Made by a program: the position numbers and the translations under genes. 64,000 nt of DNA, from the IMG/VR virus record IMGVR_UViG_3300024520_000050, positions 1 through 64,000 of that record; one strand, 5' to 3'. Numbering within the stretch: position 1 is the stretch's first letter; the number at the start of each line of letters is the position of its first letter. Below are positions 39,888 to 60,283 of this stretch, piece after piece. The notes beneath the pieces were generated by a model. It made no database searches, was not told the DNA's origin, and saw only the letters and a list, made by a program, of their open reading frames with translations. Origin of the DNA: a virus.

Positions 39888-40631
39888 ATGAAAAAGAAAT
39901 TTTACATGGATACTGAGTTCCATGAATATCAAAAAGATACTACATTACTAAAGGATGCAATTAATTCATCAAGTGTACATCAAACATTAATTGATACAAT
40001 TGAATTAATATCAATTGGTATTATAGATGAAGACGGAAATGAATACTATGCAATATCTAATGAATTTGATATAGATGATGCATGGAATAATGAATGGTTA
40101 AGAGATAATGTACTTAAGAATTTATTTGATAGTAAGATATCAGGTAATAAAACAAGTAGAGAATCAATGACTATTAAGAACTTTAAATCTTATATACTTT
40201 GTTGTGGTAAATCTAAATATCAAATAAGAGAAGAAATTAAATCATTTTGTGTAAATGGAGATTATACTGATGTGAAAAAGAGAATGGATGAAGGTTTAGA
40301 AACTATAGAACCTATTCCAGTTAATGATTACGAATTCTATGCCTACTATGGTGATTACGATTGGGTTGTATTCTGTTGGTTATTCGGAAGAATGATTGAC
40401 TTACCTAAAGGATTCCCAATGTATTGTAAAGATCTCAAGCAATTATTAGATGGTAAAGCAGAACTATTAAAAAAGAAAATATCTAATAGATTCTCTAAAG
40501 GTTTAGATTTTGATGAAGTATTATTTATTAAATCATTACATAATTATCCAACACAAGATAATCTCCATAATGCATTAGATGATGCTAAATGGAATAAAAA
40601 ATTACATGAATTTTTAAATGAATTGCAATGA
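39888..40631 (+). CDS. DEDDh 3'-5' exo(ribo)nuclease (Rv2179c/RNase AS-like)
   Basis: MDTEF, LISIGI, YYGDYDWV, HNALDDAKWN. Confidence 0.85.
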   Translation: MKKKFYMDTEFHEYQKDTTLLKDAINSSSVHQTLIDTIELISIGIIDEDGNEYYAISNEFDIDDAWNNEWLRDNVLKNLFDSKISGNKTSRESMTIKNFKSYILCCGKSKYQIREEIKSFCVNGDYTDVKKRMDEGLETIEPIPVNDYEFYAYYGDYDWVVFCWLFGRMIDLPKGFPMYCKDLKQLLDGKAELLKKKISNRFSKGLDFDEVLFIKSLHNYPTQDNLHNALDDAKWNKKLHEFLNELQ

Positions 40632-40789
40632 TGAAATGGATCAAACAATTATTCTGTAAACACAATTATGAGAAAACATATAGTATTCATGGAGATATGA
40701 TTATTATGACAGGATATAAAAGAAGTGTATGGAGATGCACTAAATGTAAAAAACATAAATTTAGTAACTATTTAAATAAATTAAAATGA
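40628..40789 (+). CDS. 53-aa zinc-ribbon-like protein (not in ORF track)
   Basis: LFCKHNY...WRCTKCKK; start and stop overlap neighbours. Confidence 0.65.
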   Translation: MMKWIKQLFCKHNYEKTYSIHGDMIIMTGYKRSVWRCTKCKKHKFSNYLNKLK

Positions 40790-41133
40790 AACAAGTAAAA
40801 GAAAATGCAGTAGTAGCAAATAACTCACATTCATATTCAGTTAATACATATACAGTTGGCCCTAATGGATTAGAAATAACTGGTGCTCAACCTATTAATT
40901 TAGTACGTGGATCTAAAGTAGATGGTGAAAATATACTTTCTAAACAAGATGGATTCTTAACTGAACAATTACTATGGATTGCACAAAATTATCTATCAGA
41001 AGTAAATGTAGGTGATATGAAGACTAGAGAAACATCAATTGCTATTACTAAGATACAAGAGGCATTAATGTGGATTAATAAGCGTCATGATGATAGAGTA
41101 GAACGTAAGGTGTTAAATACTTATAATAAATAA
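40786..41133 (+). CDS. tad1: Tad1-like anti-Thoeris/anti-CBASS sponge protein
   Basis: C-terminal QDG..EQLL.I..YL....G...RETSIAITKIQEALMWINKRHDDRVERKVLNT matches the Tad1 signature as recalled (QHG..SDLLEIV.DRL..FQAG...[32 protein letters not shown]). Confidence 0.8.
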   Translation: MKQVKENAVVANNSHSYSVNTYTVGPNGLEITGAQPINLVRGSKVDGENILSKQDGFLTEQLLWIAQNYLSEVNVGDMKTRETSIAITKIQEALMWINKRHDDRVERKVLNTYNK

Positions 41134-41579
41134 TGATAAATAAGAAACATAAGCAAAGCATTCGTAAGTTATTAAGTGGTACTAATCTTGATCACTGGAG
41201 TTTAGCATTACAGATATTAACTGGTCAACTTAGTCGAGATAACGCTGAATCAATGATACTACAGTATATTATTAATATACATAATTATAAGATTGAGAGT
41301 AAAATGACAAGTAGTATTAGAACTTGGATTAAAGAGAAAATAATTAATGAGAAATTAATTAATTATTTCAATAGAACCTTTAAATACATAACTGGATTAC
41401 GTGAGCAATTAACAAATGGTCATACTGTACAACATAACGGAGTTCTTACATTATGTCAACTTGAAGACTGGTTTGACTCTATTATTACATCACGCAAACA
41501 AAAAAGTATTACATTGTCATGTGGAAAAGAAATAGCAGAACTATTTGATGAACTAATAAAAGAAGAAATAAATGTATAA
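41133..41579 (+). CDS. chimeric protein: paralog-family-like N-terminus plus major-capsid-derived C-terminal segment
   Basis: Residues 87-118 are 20/32 identical to MCP residues 313-344. Confidence 0.75.
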   Translation: MINKKHKQSIRKLLSGTNLDHWSLALQILTGQLSRDNAESMILQYIINIHNYKIESKMTSSIRTWIKEKIINEKLINYFNRTFKYITGLREQLTNGHTVQHNGVLTLCQLEDWFDSIITSRKQKSITLSCGKEIAELFDELIKEEINV

Positions 41580-41620
41580 TTGTCCACCTGGCGAACCATT
41601 AACATGGAAAACACAAAGAT

Positions 41621-42538
41621 ATGAAGAAAGGAGAGACTGGATCGAACGTAAAGGATCTACAATATAAATTAAAGAAAGTATTAAATCGTAATATATCAAT
41701 TGATGGTGATTATGGTAATACAACAAAACAAGCAGTTTGGGATTTTCAAGGATTATATAATCTATATGTAGATGGTGTAGCAGGAGAGAAAACAATGGCT
41801 GTATTAAATAGAGCATATAATGCCTTACATAAAGAAAATAGTAACTTACTTAATCTTGGAAAGAAACGATTTGTTATCTTTGTTGATGCTGGTCATGGCG
41901 GTATTAATGATAATGGCAACTATACAACATCCGGAAAACGTGCATACCATAATGGACGTGAACTACATGAACGTGGACACTACTATGAAGGTTATGAGAA
42001 TAGAATAGTTGCAGAAGCATTTATAGAAGCTTGCATGAATAAAGGAATCATGTGTATTCGCACATATCATCCATCCAAAGATACATCTCTTTCGTATCGT
42101 ACTGATTTAATTAGATCATATCTACGTAGAGGATATTATGGATATATGCATTCATTTCATTCTAATGCTATTGCATCATCTAACTCACAAAGTAAAATGG
42201 AAGCAACCAAAGGTTATATGGTATTTAATACTAGAGGAGATACATTTTCAGATGATATAGCTACTATACATTATAATAATGTTAAGGATGAAATAGGAGA
42301 AGGTAACTGGAATTTTAGAGTACAAAAACAAGATGATGGAGATATCGATTTTGAAGTCAATTTCCAAATGTTAAGGGAAACAGATTTAAATGAATTCGAA
42401 AACTTTGGTGCAATACTAGATGAATGGGGATTTCATACATCTGGTGAAGACTGTCAATTTATATTAGACAGTAGAGAACAACGAATAAACGCATGTCTTA
42501 AGACAGCACAATGGGTAAAACAAAAATTAAATAACTAA
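41621..42538 (+). CDS. endolysin: PG_binding_1 plus N-acetylmuramoyl-L-alanine amidase (Amidase_3)
   Basis: DGDYGNTT..DGVAGEKT; VDAGHGG, EGYENR, SFHSNA, E-x-GF motifs. Confidence 0.9.
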   Translation: MKKGETGSNVKDLQYKLKKVLNRNISIDGDYGNTTKQAVWDFQGLYNLYVDGVAGEKTMAVLNRAYNALHKENSNLLNLGKKRFVIFVDAGHGGINDNGNYTTSGKRAYHNGRELHERGHYYEGYENRIVAEAFIEACMNKGIMCIRTYHPSKDTSLSYRTDLIRSYLRRGYYGYMHSFHSNAIASSNSQSKMEATKGYMVFNTRGDTFSDDIATIHYNNVKDEIGEGNWNFRVQKQDDGDIDFEVNFQMLRETDLNEFENFGAILDEWGFHTSGEDCQFILDSREQRINACLKTAQWVKQKLNN

Positions 42539-43818: not shown

Positions 43819-46284
43819 ATGTATAAAACCAAACAAGACTTAAAGAATATACAATTAGAATATGATAAAGGTGTTTTACTTCCAACAGCAAAAGAGAAGT
43901 TGATAATTAATCCTAAGATAGCATATGAGGTAACTAATATTGATGTTAAACAATCAATACCTGAACATGCTATATTAAAAAGGATTGAACCTGTATATGG
44001 TATAATCAGTGACTTCTCTAAAGAATATACTCCGGTAGATAATCTATTGTGGGACTATTTATATTTTACTGATTCTAAATTATTCGCACCTGCAGGAGAA
44101 GCATTCATGAAAAGTCTTAATGCTACTAAAGGTAAGACTGGGTTAAAACCAACATATACTAAACACTTACCCGGAACAACAGCATACAACAGATTCTGGG
44201 AAGAAGAGTTCCTTCGTATAACAAAAGGATATGAACCAGAAATAGATGGTAAACCTTGTGGTATTAAGATACCTGGTGAGTTTTATTTTTATCTGAATTA
44301 TGGTTGGATGCAAAAAGTAGAGTTCAATGATAAAGGAGAAGTAATAAGTGATAAGTCAGGTGTTCCTGATTTTCTATCGATGGATTATTACTTCTATAAA
44401 GAATTAGAAGCTAGAGAAAATCCTGCTAAATATAATCTACCTTTTGAATATAAACAATCTATGTCAATTACTAAGTCTCGTCGTAAAGGATTTAGTTATA
44501 AAGCAGGGTCAGGAGCAGTATGGTGTACAGCATTTAGAGACAAAGCAAAAGTCCTTATTGCGTCAGCTCAAGGAAAAGATGCTACCTTGTGCTTTCAGAA
44601 AGCAATGGATATTATTGATCATATAACATTATATACTCCTTTTGGTAGAAAGAATCCAGGACATCCAAGTTCTAATGGAGGTTGGAAGCATATGACAATG
44701 AGTCAAACTAAGGATCATGGCGAGTTTGTTTTCGGGTTAATTAATACTCGTACAAGAATGAAGAAAGGAAGACGTAGTGAAATAGTTACAGCGTCTTTAT
44801 TTAATAAACCAGATGCTGCTTCTGGTGAAGGTCTTACAAGACTATATATAGAGGAAGCAGGAAAGATATCTAATTTAGCTGATGCATGGGTATTCTCATT
44901 AGAATCAATGCGTGTAGGTTCTGTATATCGTTCAGGGATTGCAGTAATATTTGGAACTGGTGGATCTATGGTATCTGCTTCAGGGAAGAAAGGTTCATCG
45001 CAAGATTTTGCTAATATGAATGATAGACCTGAATCAGTAGGATTAGCTGCATTTAAAAACATATATGAATATAAACCTACACAACGTAAATGTGGTTTCT
45101 TTGTATCTGATATGTGGGCTAACTTTGGTTCTAAGATAACCATAGATGGTAAAGTGCATTATGGTTTAGATAAAAATGGTAATGCATGTTTTTGGGTTGC
45201 TGAATTAGCATTAAATAAAGAACGTGCAGGTAAACGACCACCATTAGGTAAGAAAAGAATATTTGATAAATTCCTTACACAACGTTGTAAAACCCCAGCA
45301 GAAGCATTTCTTATTACAACTGGTAGTCGATTTCAAACTGAAGATCTTGTTGAACGTAAGACTAAAATAGCTATATCACGAGGAGGATTTGAATCATTAC
45401 GGATGCCAGGTGAATTAGTAGACATAGATGGTCGAGTAGAGTTTATACCTAAACCTCATGAAGAACCATTATTAAATACATATAATGAAGCAGAAAGAGA
45501 AGGTTGCTTCTTAAGATATGAACCACCATTAAAATTAGGTGGATCAATACCAGATGATGCATATATTATTTCAGTGGATCCAATTGGTATTAATACAGAT
45601 ACAGGTGGATCATTGACGGCTATTATTGTATTTAAGACAAGAAAGTATGAATCATGGTTAGGTCCTGAAAAGATTGTAGGTATTTACTTTGGTCGTAAGA
45701 AACTTAATCCACAAGGATATGTACATAGATTATTACTTAAATTATCTAAATATTATAATGCTAAGATAACTATAGAGAATGATAGAGATGGTGGTATACC
45801 TCAATACTTTATTCGTAAAGGAGAAGCTGCTAGATTAATGGGACCTCCTATTACTACAATGGAGAAGATTATGCCAGGTAGTAAAACATCACGTAGACCG
45901 TATGGTCATTCAATGTCAACAGTTCGACATAAACAAATTGGAGAAGATTTATTATATGAATGGTTAGATTTACGTGGATCTAATATAACTTATTATGATG
46001 AAGAAGATGGTGAAAAGACTATTGAATCAGGATTACGTAATATAGATAGATTAGAAGATCAACTACTAATTGAACAATTAATTAAGTACGAACGTGGTGG
46101 TAACTACGATTTAGTTATGGCAATGATGGGAATTGTAGTTCAATTAAAAGAATGGTACGATCCAGAAGATACAGATCCATATGAAGAAAATAGTATATCA
46201 GATCAACTTAATAAATGGAAAGTAAAACGATTTGGCTCATATGAAGACAAATTAAAATATAACAAAAGAAAATTTAAACGATAA
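43819..46284 (+). CDS. terL: terminase large subunit
   Basis: Walker A KSRRKGFSY, Walker B YIEEAG, nuclease ISVDP, C-terminal NYDLVMA. Confidence 0.92.
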   Translation: MYKTKQDLKNIQLEYDKGVLLPTAKEKLIINPKIAYEVTNIDVKQSIPEHAILKRIEPVYGIISDFSKEYTPVDNLLWDYLYFTDSKLFAPAGEAFMKSLNATKGKTGLKPTYTKHLPGTTAYNRFWEEEFLRITKGYEPEIDGKPCGIKIPGEFYFYLNYGWMQKVEFNDKGEVISDKSGVPDFLSMDYYFYKELEARENPAKYNLPFEYKQSMSITKSRRKGFSYKAGSGAVWCTAFRDKAKVLIASAQGKDATLCFQKAMDIIDHITLYTPFGRKNPGHPSSNGGWKHMTMSQTKDHGEFVFGLINTRTRMKKGRRSEIVTASLFNKPDAASGEGLTRLYIEEAGKISNLADAWVFSLESMRVGSVYRSGIAVIFGTGGSMVSASGKKGSSQDFANMNDRPESVGLAAFKNIYEYKPTQRKCGFFVSDMWANFGSKITIDGKVHYGLDKNGNACFWVAELALNKERAGKRPPLGKKRIFDKFLTQRCKTPAEAFLITTGSRFQTEDLVERKTKIAISRGGFESLRMPGELVDIDGRVEFIPKPHEEPLLNTYNEAEREGCFLRYEPPLKLGGSIPDDAYIISVDPIGINTDTGGSLTAIIVFKTRKYESWLGPEKIVGIYFGRKKLNPQGYVHRLLLKLSKYYNAKITIENDRDGGIPQYFIRKGEAARLMGPPITTMEKIMPGSKTSRRPYGHSMSTVRHKQIGEDLLYEWLDLRGSNITYYDEEDGEKTIESGLRNIDRLEDQLLIEQLIKYERGGNYDLVMAMMGIVVQLKEWYDPEDTDPYEENSISDQLNKWKVKRFGSYEDKLKYNKRKFKR

Positions 46285-49062: not shown

Positions 49063-50625
49063 ATGCATAAAACAACAAGTACAATATTAACTGGAGTTAA
49101 TCTTCTGGTTGATACTGTTAAACAAACACTAGGAACAAAAGGTCGTACTATTTTATTTAATGATGAGAACAATAGAACTCACATTACTAAAGATGGTGTG
49201 ACTGTTGCTCGTCATATCTTTTCAGAAGATGATTATGAGAATATGATAATTACTGTATTACGTGAAGCATCACTTAAGACTATGAAGTCAAGTGGAGACG
49301 GCACTACAACAACAATGATACTTGCTCAATATATTATTAATGAAGGACTTAAATTACTTGATGAAGGATTAAGTTTTTATGAAATGAGTCGTCAAGTTGA
49401 TGAAGCTGTCAAAGATGTAGTAGATTATATTAATAATACTTCAATTAAAATAGAAGATAATCAAGAATTACTTCGTGAAATTGCAGCTATTTCTTCTAAC
49501 GATGAAAAGCTTGGAGATTACATTTATTCAATCATAGAAGAGATTGGATTATATGGAGATATTGAAGTTAAAGAATCTCAATACTCTGAAACTCGTAAGA
49601 TTCAAACTAAAGGAATGAAGTTACATAAAGGTTGGATGGAGAACTTTATGATGAATGATCCACGTGAATTAAAATTTAAAGCAAATGATTGCCATATTCT
49701 TATTATTGATGATATCATTCAAGCTATTACTGATATTGATCAGTATATTAGACACCTTAATGGAAAACCGTTGGTAGTATTCTGTGATGAGGTTACAGAT
49801 ATTACATTATCCCAAATTCAAAAATGGATGAGTACTACAGGTTATCCTGCATGTTTCGTCCACAATGATGGACACGGAGAACGTAAACAAATATTAATGA
49901 ATGATCTTGCTGCATTAACATCAGCATATGTTATTTCTGCACAAGATCCATTTGATCCTGATAATTTAGGATTCACTGGACAGATACAAGTTGGTGAATG
50001 GCATACATCTATATTAGATGGTGAAAGTGATACGGATATGATTGAAGCTATTACATATGATATTCAAGAAATATTAAATGATGATGCAAATGATGATGAA
50101 ACATTAATTACTAATGTAGATCGTAAGTTTCATAAAAAACGCTTAGCTAATTTAACAGGTGGATTAGCAGTAATTCATGTGGGTGGACGTACACAAATGG
50201 AGATGAAAGAATTGAAGGATAGATTTGATGATGCTGTATTGGCTGTAGGAAGTGCTATTAAACAAGGAGTTAATGTTGGGGGTGGTTCTACTTATATTAA
50301 CTGTCAGAAGATACTAAATAAAAGATATAAGGAATCTAAAGGTAGAGGATATAAATTAATTATAGATTCACTTGATTCCCCATTCAAACAATTATTAACT
50401 AATGCTGATCTATCTAGTCAATTTGGATTTTATAAGAATCAACTTACTAAAGGTAAAGCATTAGATCTTCGTGATAATAAATTATATAACCTTGCAACAA
50501 CAAAATATACAGTGTATGATCCATCATCTGTATTGATTGATTCGTTAATTAATGCAACTGCTGTAGCAAAATCATTACTATCTATAAAAGATGTACTTTT
50601 TGATGGAAAGAAACTAGGCGGTTAG
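49063..50625 (+). CDS. groEL: phage chaperonin GroEL-like
   Basis: TLGTKG, ITKDGVTVA, GDGTTT, KDRFDDA, GGG, DP motifs; no GGM tail. Confidence 0.95.
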   Translation: MHKTTSTILTGVNLLVDTVKQTLGTKGRTILFNDENNRTHITKDGVTVARHIFSEDDYENMIITVLREASLKTMKSSGDGTTTTMILAQYIINEGLKLLDEGLSFYEMSRQVDEAVKDVVDYINNTSIKIEDNQELLREIAAISSNDEKLGDYIYSIIEEIGLYGDIEVKESQYSETRKIQTKGMKLHKGWMENFMMNDPRELKFKANDCHILIIDDIIQAITDIDQYIRHLNGKPLVVFCDEVTDITLSQIQKWMSTTGYPACFVHNDGHGERKQILMNDLAALTSAYVISAQDPFDPDNLGFTGQIQVGEWHTSILDGESDTDMIEAITYDIQEILNDDANDDETLITNVDRKFHKKRLANLTGGLAVIHVGGRTQMEMKELKDRFDDAVLAVGSAIKQGVNVGGGSTYINCQKILNKRYKESKGRGYKLIIDSLDSPFKQLLTNADLSSQFGFYKNQLTKGKALDLRDNKLYNLATTKYTVYDPSSVLIDSLINATAVAKSLLSIKDVLFDGKKLGG

Positions 50626-51959: not shown

Positions 51960-53561
51960 ATGTCAGTAAAAAACTTTGAGAATGCTAAAGCGATCCATAA
52001 TGGACAACTTCGTCCAACTGTATTAACAGATGGCCTTTTAGCAACTGGTGAGATTACTGGTCTACACTTAAGCCAAGCTTTCGGTAGTACTGAAAATCTT
52101 GCGACAATTAATATGGGTTATGCACAAATCTTTAGTGCAACTAACCGATATCACAGCAAGCCTATCCTTGGAATGACTGAGGCTAAAGGTAAAGTAAAAA
52201 CAATTAATCGTAGAGGTTTCCGTTGGGAACTATCTGGAGGTAACACACAAAAAGCTCGTATTACACGTGTTGTTTGTACTGATGCTCGTCCAGGTCTACA
52301 TTTACAAACTTTTGATATCGTAGTTGATAAGCCATGGTTTAACGTATCTGATATTATTATTCCTCAGAATAATAAACGTCAATGTCGTGTAAGTACTTTT
52401 GGTAACGGTCAATCACGTAGACATCATCAAGTAGGACCTAACGCTTATCGTTATACTATTCAATACATTACTAATAACGGTAATGAATTCTTACCCGCCA
52501 AGTATATCCAAGAAGGACAAGAATGGTGTAAAGTTTCTAGTGCTGTAGGTGATGAAGATAACATCGATGCTGGTGGATTCCAATTCTACTCAATCTTCGA
52601 AAGTGAAGGTCAAATCCAACAACATGCAATTAAGGTAGAAGTATCTGATAAAGCTGCTCGTCGTGCGAAACAAGCACAAAAAGATGGTAGTGATACAGAT
52701 GAATTCGGTAAATATCTTAAGATGTTATGGGTTAAGTATGAAGACAAAGTAACAGGTGAACCAATGCACCGTTTCATGGCTTTATTAGATGCAGAAGCAT
52801 ATAATGAGTTATACCAAAACGTTGAATGGACATTAATCTTCGGTAAGACATCTAATAACATGGTGACACCAGAAGGACATCAAATCTTAACTGCTTCAGG
52901 ATTACGTCAACAATTAGAATCAGGTTATACACTTGAGCATAATGGTACATTATCTTTAGAAGAATTAGAAGACTGGTTTGATTCAATTATGAAAGACAAA
53001 CTTTCAGAAGGTGAGCAAAAAATCGTTTTATCTGCCGGTCGTGAATTCCGTAAGATGTTCGATAAGATGATCAAAGTAGATGCTAGAGCATTTACAACTA
53101 TTGATACATTATTCCTTCGTAAAGGAGACAACTTCCGTCATATGGATTTTGGTTCTTACTTTGCATCTTATAAAGGTTTCACAGTTGATATTTCTGTAAT
53201 GGAAAATCCAGCTTACGATAATCAATACTACTGCCCACAAATGCACCCAGTGCGTACAGAGGTTTGTATCGATTCATGGAGAGCTGATATCTTGGACTTC
53301 GGATCAAGTAAACAACAAGGAACTGGAGGAGAAACAGATAATATCTGTATGATTCAAGAGTCATACTGTGACTACAATATCACTTACAACGGTAAATGGT
53401 ATGGAGCACATGATGGTAAATCAGGTCAACCAATCACAGATGGTGGTTTAGGACAAGGTGGTGGAGTCTCAGGATATTCTATCCTAAGAGAGAAATCAGC
53501 TGGACTTATGGTTGCTGATGTAACTCGTTGTGGATCAATCTTCTTATCTTTTGACGATTAA
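51960..53561 (+). CDS. major capsid protein
   Basis: 533 aa at the canonical position; FRWEL, AAIA-type head order as in crAss-like phages. Confidence 0.85.
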   Translation: MSVKNFENAKAIHNGQLRPTVLTDGLLATGEITGLHLSQAFGSTENLATINMGYAQIFSATNRYHSKPILGMTEAKGKVKTINRRGFRWELSGGNTQKARITRVVCTDARPGLHLQTFDIVVDKPWFNVSDIIIPQNNKRQCRVSTFGNGQSRRHHQVGPNAYRYTIQYITNNGNEFLPAKYIQEGQEWCKVSSAVGDEDNIDAGGFQFYSIFESEGQIQQHAIKVEVSDKAARRAKQAQKDGSDTDEFGKYLKMLWVKYEDKVTGEPMHRFMALLDAEAYNELYQNVEWTLIFGKTSNNMVTPEGHQILTASGLRQQLESGYTLEHNGTLSLEELEDWFDSIMKDKLSEGEQKIVLSAGREFRKMFDKMIKVDARAFTTIDTLFLRKGDNFRHMDFGSYFASYKGFTVDISVMENPAYDNQYYCPQMHPVRTEVCIDSWRADILDFGSSKQQGTGGETDNICMIQESYCDYNITYNGKWYGAHDGKSGQPITDGGLGQGGGVSGYSILREKSAGLMVADVTRCGSIFLSFDD

Positions 53562-58486: not shown

Positions 58487-60283
58487 ATGGCAATACCTAA
58501 ATTTTATTTAGATAATAGGTTTGATAATGCTCGTAGTAGTTCTCATATCGGTATGACTAAAAATACAGAGCTAGGATGGTTCATTAATAAATACATGAAC
58601 ACAGCAGGACCGACCGTACTTTTTGGTGATGGTACTGTACTATTACCATCTGTATCTAACCTTGGTGATACAAATACAGGTCTATACTTTACAACAGCTG
58701 ATGAGGTTTCTATCTCAACAGGTGGAGTTAAAGCAGCAGGATTTGGAACAACAGGACTTGAATTAGCATTAGACTTATTCTTCACAGAAGAAGTAAATCA
58801 TGTAGCGCAAGTACTTACATCAACTACAGCTACAACAGCAGGTGGTAATTTAACTATTTCATCTGGTATCGGTGCAACTACTGGCGCAGGTGGAATTACA
58901 ACAGTAATCTCAGGAGCTGGTGGTCTTACTGGAACAGGAGGAGCATTAACAATGTCTTCTGGAGCAGGAGGAGCAACTTCAGGTGATTCTGGAGTAGTAA
59001 CAATACAATCAGCAGATGAAACTAGTACTGATCTTTCTGGAACAGTATCAATTACATCAGGAACAACAGTAAGTGCTGATTCTGGAGCATTAACAATCGA
59101 TTCTGGAGCAGTAGCTACTCTTGGGGGATCAGGAGCAGTTACAGTAGCATCTGGTGCTTCATCAACTTCTGGATTATCAGGAGTAGTATTAATTACATCA
59201 GGAACAACAGTAGACACAGCATCTGGAACTATGACTTCTACTACAGGAGCTGTAGCAACATCAGGTAACTCTGGAGCAAATACAGTGTCAACAGGAGCCT
59301 CTACTACAGCAGGTGATTCAGGAATTATGAGTGTTTTATCTGGAGCTGCTACAACTGGAGATACAGGAAATGTAGAAGTTAAATCTGGTGATGTAGCTAC
59401 TTTAGGTGCATCTGGAACATTAACAGTTTCTACAGGAGTTTCTAGTACATCTGGTGCTTCTGGAGCATTAGTTGTATCTACTGGTGATACAGTTGATACA
59501 ACATCGGGTATAGCATCTATTTTTACAGGTGATGTATCTACTTCAGGTAACTCTGGAGCAGTTAGTATTAAATCTGGAGATTCTGCAGTAGCAGGAGATT
59601 CTGGTACATCAACTATTGATACAGGAGAAGTAGTAACTGGCGATTCAGGAGCTAGTACTCTTACTACAGGAGATGTAACAACATTAGGGGCTTCGGGATT
59701 AGCTGAAGTTTCAACTGGAGATTCAACTACTTCTGGAGCAACAGGAGCAATTAATATAGTTTCTGGTGACGCTACAATAGGTAGTTCTGGGGTAATTAGT
59801 ATAACATCAGGAAATACCGCGTCAGGTTTAGCAGGAGATATTATCTTAACAACAGGAACACATACATCTGCAACAGTTGTACCAATCGTACAATTGACTA
59901 AAGGTGTAGCACAAAAACCTACATCAACAGCAGTAGCAACTGGAGCAACAGCAACAGTTAGTGGTGTTATTAGTGGATGTTTAGGAGTTACAGGAACTAC
60001 AGGTAATGTTACACTTCCAACTGGTACTGAAATTAGTACTGCATTGGGATCACCAACACCAGGTATGTCTTTCGACTTTGTAGTTAATACAATAGCAATG
60101 ACAGCAGCTAACGTTGCAACAATTGTAGTTGCAGCAGGAATCGTAACACAGAAAATGATTTCAGCAGGTGATGTAGCCACAGACCAACTTTTAACTGTAA
60201 CAAATACTGCTAACGTAAATGTTGGTATATTTAGAATGGTTAATATTGGAGCTAACTCTTGGTCATTACATAGATTAGCATAA
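58487..60283 (+). CDS. G/T/S-rich repetitive fibre/spike protein (beta-solenoid-like)
   Basis: About 17-aa repeat SG-(A/V)-x-I-x-SG/TG-x-S/A-TT across residues about 110-480. Confidence 0.75.
   Translation: MAIPKFYLDNRFDNARSSSHIGMTKNTELGWFINKYMNTAGPTVLFGDGTVLLPSVSNLGDTNTGLYFTTADEVSISTGGVKAAGFGTTGLELALDLFFTEEVNHVAQVLTSTTATTAGGNLTISSGIGATTGAGGITTVISGAGGLTGTGGALTMSSGAGGATSGDSGVVTIQSADETSTDLSGTVSITSGTTVSADSGALTIDSGAVATLGGSGAVTVASGASSTSGLSGVVLITSGTTVDTASGTMTSTTGAVATSGNSGANTVSTGASTTAGDSGIMSVLSGAATTGDTGNVEVKSGDVATLGASGTLTVSTGVSSTSGASGALVVSTGDTVDTTSGIASIFTGDVSTSGNSGAVSIKSGDSAVAGDSGTSTIDTGEVVTGDSGASTLTTGDVTTLGASGLAEVSTGDSTTSGATGAINIVSGDATIGSSGVISITSGNTASGLAGDIILTTGTHTSATVVPIVQLTKGVAQKPTSTAVATGATATVSGVISGCLGVTGTTGNVTLPTGTEISTALGSPTPGMSFDFVVNTIAMTAANVATIVVAAGIVTQKMISAGDVATDQLLTVTNTANVNVGIFRMVNIGANSWSLHRLA

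Follow-up and report, generated by a model that had tools for sequence, protein, structure and literature searches.

A capsid-protein fragment on a helical carrier in a marine crAss-like phage, a possible mimic of the surface bound by host capsid sensors

What use could a phage have for a small gene that joins a piece of a major capsid protein (MCP) to an unrelated domain? The locus that raises this question lies within positions 1–64,000 of a contig of 178,400 bases (31% GC); this stretch is the window analysed here, and positions refer to it unless a contig is named. G000 denotes the whole genome of this phage, L numbers denote contigs of relatives (L043 is also used for this genome's paralogue), and P0001 is the fusion protein studied. 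The contig ends share a 142-base overlap, so the contig is probably a complete, circular assembly. The phage is a marine, crAss-like phage of 178 kb. The sequencing runs that contain it are seawater metagenomes, and no RNA dataset was among the runs listed as containing the sequence. Its MCP gene (51960–53561, plus strand) is of the crassvirus type, with a match to PF23898 (E = 3e-38) and similarity to crAss001 gp32; the closest annotated MCPs, about 21% identical, belong to gut crassviruses and Flavobacterium phages, and the host is presumably a member of the Bacteroidota. The window also contains terminase, portal and probable scaffold genes and, between portal and scaffold, a phage GroEL-like gene (49063–50625) that is conserved in the family and interrupted in relatives L010 and L017. 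Relatives L015, L020 and L046–L048 have split MCP genes, flanked in L046–L048 by LAGLIDADG or HNH homing endonucleases. A degenerate direct repeat (about 130 bases, 71%) lies within a 598-aa gene at 58940–59212, and a 6557-aa ORF (G000:92020–111693, minus strand) perhaps encodes a virion RNA polymerase or a cargo protein.

The fusion gene (41133–41579, plus strand; 148 aa) was singled out in a first-pass annotation, and the coordinates and counts given there for its MCP match hold. P0001 residues 87–143 (41391–41561) align with MCP residues 313–372 (52896–53075, plus strand) with 30 of 60 positions identical (E = 5e-18), including 20 of 32 in the first block. This was the sole significant partial match between a small and a large ORF in the genome (the best E-value under a reversed-sequence null was 0.003). 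The two segments share 62 of 92 bases (67%) at the DNA level and, over the first 32 codons, dN is 0.31 and dS about 1.9, with synonymous sites near saturation. The piece amounts to about 11% of the MCP, and residues 313–374 are the only part of the MCP present in P0001. When P0001 residues 1–86 were compared with five head proteins, there was no convincing MCP match (115 of 300 shuffles attained the score), and a reading of residues 51–86 as a continuation of the MCP spine helix was dropped as unsupported. A PHROGs search with P0001 returned only a weak major-head match, Pfam and PADLOC gave nothing significant, and the ESM Atlas gave no usable match. Pattern scans of IMG/VR, JGI metagenome and GTDB sequences and a scan of GenBank phages, all of them insensitive, found no match to the fusion. 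A sigma-70 promoter scan stayed at chance level.

The fusion is not an assembly artefact, a concern already raised in the annotation, because single contigs from two seawater runs (possibly the source samples) cover the gene with zero differences or joints and because orthologues occur in other assemblies. A search of related phages for the same fusion, as the annotation had advised, yielded five relatives that keep it (P0002–P0006; 43–65% identity) in syntenic or near-syntenic positions; those with a known flank lie directly before the amidase gene or in the same slot. The reading frame is intact in all six divergent copies. In a codon model run on five DNA sequences, the MCP-derived piece (residues 87–145; 41391–41567, plus strand) had an omega of 0.32 and the N-terminal part an omega of 0.26 (2ΔlnL against omega = 1 of 24.2 and 50.7, respectively). 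The fusion gene is a functional protein-coding gene under purifying selection. The annotation had named a disrupted frame in relatives or a dN/dS near 1 as outcomes that would refute it, and on both counts the result speaks in its favour. Pairwise NG86 ratios for the piece ranged from 0.34 to 1.08, three of them, all with P0002, being near 1; such counting tends to underestimate dS in AT-rich DNA.

Constraint on the piece is about 7-fold looser than on the same segment in true MCPs, where omega among relatives is 0.047. Column conservation in the fragments nevertheless follows that in the MCPs (rho 0.33, p = 0.009). Retention in the fragments was higher at Gly/His/Asn (0.76) and hydrophobic (0.49) positions than at charged ones (0.34), a pattern consistent with preservation of shape. 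Surface charged residues of the piece are not kept, and P0004 has lost its first third. The gene diverges fast (57% versus 88% for the neighbouring amidase), and it is accessory, since several relatives with 66–77% identical terminases lack it in the slot.

The first-pass annotation had called the piece a duplicate of the phage's own MCP, and here the trees disagreed. Topologies that force the pieces to group with this phage's MCP were rejected (p-AU 0.007, and 0.0005 for P0001 alone, on 66 columns with long branches), and these values, with the dS of about 1.9, exclude a recent duplicate of the phage's own MCP. The pieces of P0001–P0005 form one group (support 95/99), and that of P0001 scores about equally on its own and on foreign or distant MCPs (152–169). 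As judged from sequence comparison, the piece goes back to an old or foreign capture within this MCP family and did not arise by recent self-duplication. Placing all pieces, including that of P0013 (below), in one clade (p-AU 0.29) and giving P0013 a separate origin (p-AU 0.36) are both compatible with the data; because the tree cannot fix their count, the number of independent captures rests on differing architectures.

AlphaFold modelled residues 1–85 (41133–41387, plus strand) as five helices with good confidence (pLDDT about 71–93 per block), and we refer to this domain as the carrier. A fold search with it turned up generic helical solenoids (best Z 7.4) and no specific match; a BFVD fold search found nothing for P0001. 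In the structure prediction, a step that the annotation had proposed, the piece has helices where the MCP has them, at poor confidence (pLDDT 41–56), and the MCP model, itself of low confidence (pLDDT 45), was used just for the order of helices and strands. In that model, the piece comes after the long spine helix (272–292) and the next loop. It reads helix–strand–helix–strand–helix and aligns to approximately residues 285–345 of crAss001 gp32. By the general topology of the HK97 fold, we take this to be the first half of the A-domain; the piece would thus be a captured half A-domain, and it presumably folds.

The annotation had also likened the N-terminal half to a dispersed paralogue family. 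Two families with about 13 paralogues, shared N-termini and variable C-termini do occupy the early region (3403–29350, minus strand), and we detected no virion cargo in their C-termini. Their likeness to P0001 is weak and limited to the first ~28 residues, not the whole N-terminal half (profile–profile probability 69% for one subgroup and 19% for the other), and neither profile matches P0001 directly at E < 0.5. A closer carrier paralogue lies outside the window, behind the DNA polymerase (G000:129573–129929, minus strand; also L043:14574–14930). The genes adjoining it, at 129941 and 129264, begin with related helical hairpins. Most carrier relatives bear unrelated tails without a detectable virion match.

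The gene immediately upstream (40786–41133, plus strand), whose stop overlaps the start of the fusion gene, is by sequence a homologue of the Tad1/Acb2 family and a candidate nucleotide sponge (PF24729, 27.8 bits against a cut-off of 27; E = 5e-11 to solved Tad1 over residues 22–114, across the hairpin). The annotation was therefore right about a Tad1-like neighbour, but orthologous loci do not conserve this arrangement: the gene immediately preceding P0003, P0004 and P0005 is not Tad1-like, and the 6.5-kb contig of P0003 has no Tad1 family match on record. The fusion gene is itself unrelated to these sponges. The slot is hypervariable, with patchy gene presence and Tad1 homologues in three lineages, this one and two others (L063/L064 and L066) that have them in the same variable island; Tad1 and the fusion gene share an island and are not a fixed pair. 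The Tad1-like domain in L063:583–1302 and L066:315–959 forms the C-terminus of longer proteins (214–239 aa). In our window, the slot also holds a 3'-5' exoribonuclease-like gene (39888–40631, plus strand) and a 53-aa Cys/His protein (40628–40789, plus strand), and its downstream anchor is the amidase endolysin gene (41621–42538, plus strand). A 31-aa ORF overlapping the amidase start (41572–41667), open in L002 too, is probably a by-product of the overlap. A gene of about 140 aa, ferritin/Dps-like by eye, sits in the same slot in L044 (4700–5119), L055 (3984–4394) and L014 (877–1293).

P0001 and its orthologues are not the only genes of this kind. Approximately the same MCP segment (312–346) occurs in at least three architectures, namely the P0001 clade, P0013 and a set of fragment-first genes. 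P0013 belongs to a tandem carrier array behind the DNA polymerase (L028:2513–3492) that holds two different MCP pieces: P0013 carries MCP ~306–347 at another junction (E = 2e-8 to a distant MCP lineage, on which it scores 103 versus at most 81 on near lineages), and the next gene but one (L028:3064–3492) carries MCP 54–86 (E = 4e-7), joined at P0001's carrier junction. The fragment-first genes L059:667–897 (E = 8e-4) and L063:2153–2419 (E = 0.002) combine the same A-domain segment with a helical tail in the slot before the amidase. By eye, L093:4857–5087 is another, a 76-aa gene absent from the related L062, and L044:5260–5526 is a borderline third form of the segment (E = 0.03; the best of 290 shuffled controls reached 0.018). 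In this genome, two genes begin with helical hairpins that match the fragment-first tail (E = 1e-4 and 1e-3; null 2.0); between the tail and the carrier itself, the link is weak. A stand-alone mini-gene in the slot before the amidase (L067:3887–4081) corresponds to MCP 181–213 (E = 0.002), and the cargo of G003/G004 scores 56 on the distant MCP lineage versus 32 on its own MCP. The carrier tail in L025:1492–1863 and L093:3849–4220 is weakly more like the distant-lineage MCP (~62–92) than its own (E = 0.18).

Other virion proteins were represented as well. A portal piece lies directly after P0002 (E = 1e-4), with a homologue in L066; mini-genes L003:490–614 and L066:3687–3944 resemble portal residues ~534–564, and L063:2403–2612 weakly resembles 264–295. 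The C-terminus of the paralogue G000:129573–129929 matches the Walker A region of the terminase (residues 204–227; 44428–44499, plus strand) at 8 of 11 positions; none of 1000 shuffles did as well with a cut point chosen post hoc, and the genome-wide E-value was only 0.04–0.2. By sequence, this paralogue probably carries a terminase Walker A motif, and we found no orthologue of it. A similarity of G000:118154–118339 to MCP 76–105 (1 of 1000 shuffles) was discounted, being a genome-wide pick against a null that reached E = 0.003; by eye it resembles a small SH3/KOW-type protein. Conserved glycine-rich genes of 63–68 aa directly upstream of P0003 and P0004 (L001:14–205; L002:318–524) gave no significant virion match. 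Of the roughly 335 large proteins searched, only MCP, portal and terminase were found as cargo, and one 35-residue MCP segment was captured recurrently, in either orientation relative to the helical modules. Because 28% of MCP windows are conserved at least as much as 312–346, detection bias alone is unlikely to explain this recurrence. Some carriers lie behind the DNA polymerase, apart from the assembly genes.

Our favoured reading, to which we give a little less than an even chance, is that the fusion protein is a non-activating mimic of the A-domain surface bound by the capsid sensors Avs7, Avs8 and Avs10. Capsid sensing has been described for these receptors, for Thoeris ThsB and for CapRel-SJ46 (PMC13581612, PMC12578639, review PMC13728456); the three Avs proteins, although unrelated, all bind the A-domain according to its shape, and monomers are their targets (PMC13581612). 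The stable five-helix carrier would display the captured half of the A-domain, the surface gripped by such monomer-sensing receptors. Expressed, presumably late, from a gene block that runs rightward on the late side, some 10 kb before the MCP gene, the mimic would occupy a host sensor (Avs7/8/10-like, TIR or toxin–antitoxin type); lacking the remaining contacts required for activation, it would thereby shield nascent MCP. The idea gains support from the repeated capture of the same A-domain segment, given that three unrelated Avs sensors bind this domain (PMC13581612). We also count in its favour that the cargo classes (MCP, portal and terminase) are classes of protein that Avs receptors sense; Avs2, for example, recognises its target via the ATP that the Walker A of the terminase holds (bioRxiv 10.64898/2026.08.25.746987). 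The MCP is sensed by Thoeris, too (PMC12578639). The purifying selection on the piece, its MCP-like pattern of conserved columns, the hypervariable slot with patchy gene presence and Tad1 homologues, and the carriers placed behind the DNA polymerase likewise speak for the mimic. Against it we count the weak model of the piece, the charges not kept, the loss in P0004, the three NG86 ratios near 1, the unconserved Tad1 adjacency and the absence of the gene from the slot in several relatives. The interfaces of known sensors are very large (3,700 square angstroms buried by Avs7), so a stretch of 60 residues may fail to bind; as Avs18 shows, activation instead of blocking can follow from a minimal segment (PMC13581612).

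A wider proposal, which we regard as rather doubtful, is that the phage family keeps a modular library of self-antigen mimics, with helical carriers or hairpins fused at either end to capsid, portal and terminase pieces. The shared module might in addition serve as a handle, bringing a phage or host factor to the trapped sensor, and the captured segments would map the epitopes watched by hosts. Escape from receptors for conserved virion folds is considered difficult, as their targets cannot mutate easily; if the proposal were true, grafting pieces of the target onto small carriers would be a general way round them. Since the pieces are readable from sequence, they could predict sensed epitopes (the A-domain segment, at least three times) and supply candidate inhibitors of Avs7/8/10. 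Even if the decoy reading fails, the genes record how proteins under selection arose repeatedly from pieces of essential phage genes. In the literature searched for decoy or fragment-type inhibitors, which covered few subscription journals, homologous virion fragments on swappable carriers were not described; nor did a fragment-type inhibitor of Avs7/8/10 turn up in the passages covered. The gene architecture is apparently undescribed.

Known systems resemble P0001 in part. Ebola secreted GP is a truncated self-antigen decoy proposed to distract immunity; it derives from the same gene and is directed at antibodies, whereas the P0001 type consists of separate modular genes in a phage. T4 gp24 is a capsid homologue encoded apart from the main capsid gene, with a near-complete HK97 fold in the shell. 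We rejected a capsid paralogue of this or the Ccm type for P0001, which has only MCP 313–374 and not a near-complete HK97 fold. SaPI Ccm (PMC8569155) is likewise a capsid homologue encoded apart from the main capsid gene, and its near-complete HK97 fold is built into the shell, whereas P0001 has a small part of the MCP on an unrelated domain. The parallel for our favoured reading is DSAD1, the anti-DSR2 protein of SPbeta-like phages, a small protein proposed as a structural mimic of the trigger that occupies the sensor pocket without activation, for which binding has been shown (PMC10973363). By analogy, P0001 might work likewise, as a partial trigger mimic occupying a sensor. We do not assign P0001 to the DSAD1 family. 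DSAD1 has a fold of its own, for which structural homologues have not been reported, and is a mimic of the tail tube, whereas P0001 has a capsid-homologous piece on a swappable carrier; our P0001 model is mainly helical, DSAD1 is by its published description beta-rich with one helix, and it was absent among the fold matches listed. Avs7/8/10, Thoeris ThsB and CapRel-SJ46 are host sensors, and so candidate targets and not phage inhibitors. The three Avs proteins bind the A-domain, where the piece would map; escape from Thoeris has been traced to the E-loop and P-loop and not to the A-domain (PMC12578639).

Could the piece be aimed at other phages instead? As a dominant-negative fragment, it might cap or misfold the capsid subunits of co-infecting relatives, or soak up a satellite's capsid-hijacking protein. 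The failure of the piece to nest with its own MCP fits this idea, as do the preferences of P0013 and of the G003/G004 cargo for a distant MCP lineage and the capsomer-centre contacts made by the A-domain (PMC10172136, PMC13581612). Yet horizontal transfer of mini-genes or long-branch effects would explain the tree equally well, and a piece as close to its own as to foreign MCPs risks self-poisoning; we consider such a weapon against competitors or satellites unlikely.

We judge equally unlikely that the piece is filler, gained when a paralogue family with variable C-termini picks up parts of strongly expressed genes through illegitimate recombination, with the function residing in the carrier and the piece kept only because it folds or stabilises. 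The unrelated tails of most carrier relatives, the 7-fold higher omega, the mostly core-type retained residues and the partial loss in P0004 would all be expected of filler. Filler would not be expected to involve the same 35-residue segment again and again, in both orientations, nor to be limited to three classes of virion protein.

More improbable still is a regulator of the phage's own head assembly, which would bind MCP, scaffold, phage GroEL or an auxiliary capsid protein and tune timing or capsid size. The gene lies upstream of the head genes, among them that for the GroEL-like protein, and shares their orientation; an auxiliary protein of crAss001 binds the A-domain (PMC10172136), and capsid homologues such as SaPI Ccm redirect assembly (PMC8569155). 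But the slot lacks the gene in relatives with very similar head genes, the protein evolves fast without following its own MCP, and nothing in this analysis connects it to GroEL, for which the first-pass annotation had envisaged a role. A neutral duplication remnant or an assembly artefact has next to no probability: the three pairwise dN/dS values near 1, all involving P0002, are what a remnant might show, but the likelihood test rejects neutrality, six divergent copies have kept their frame, and contigs span the gene without joints.
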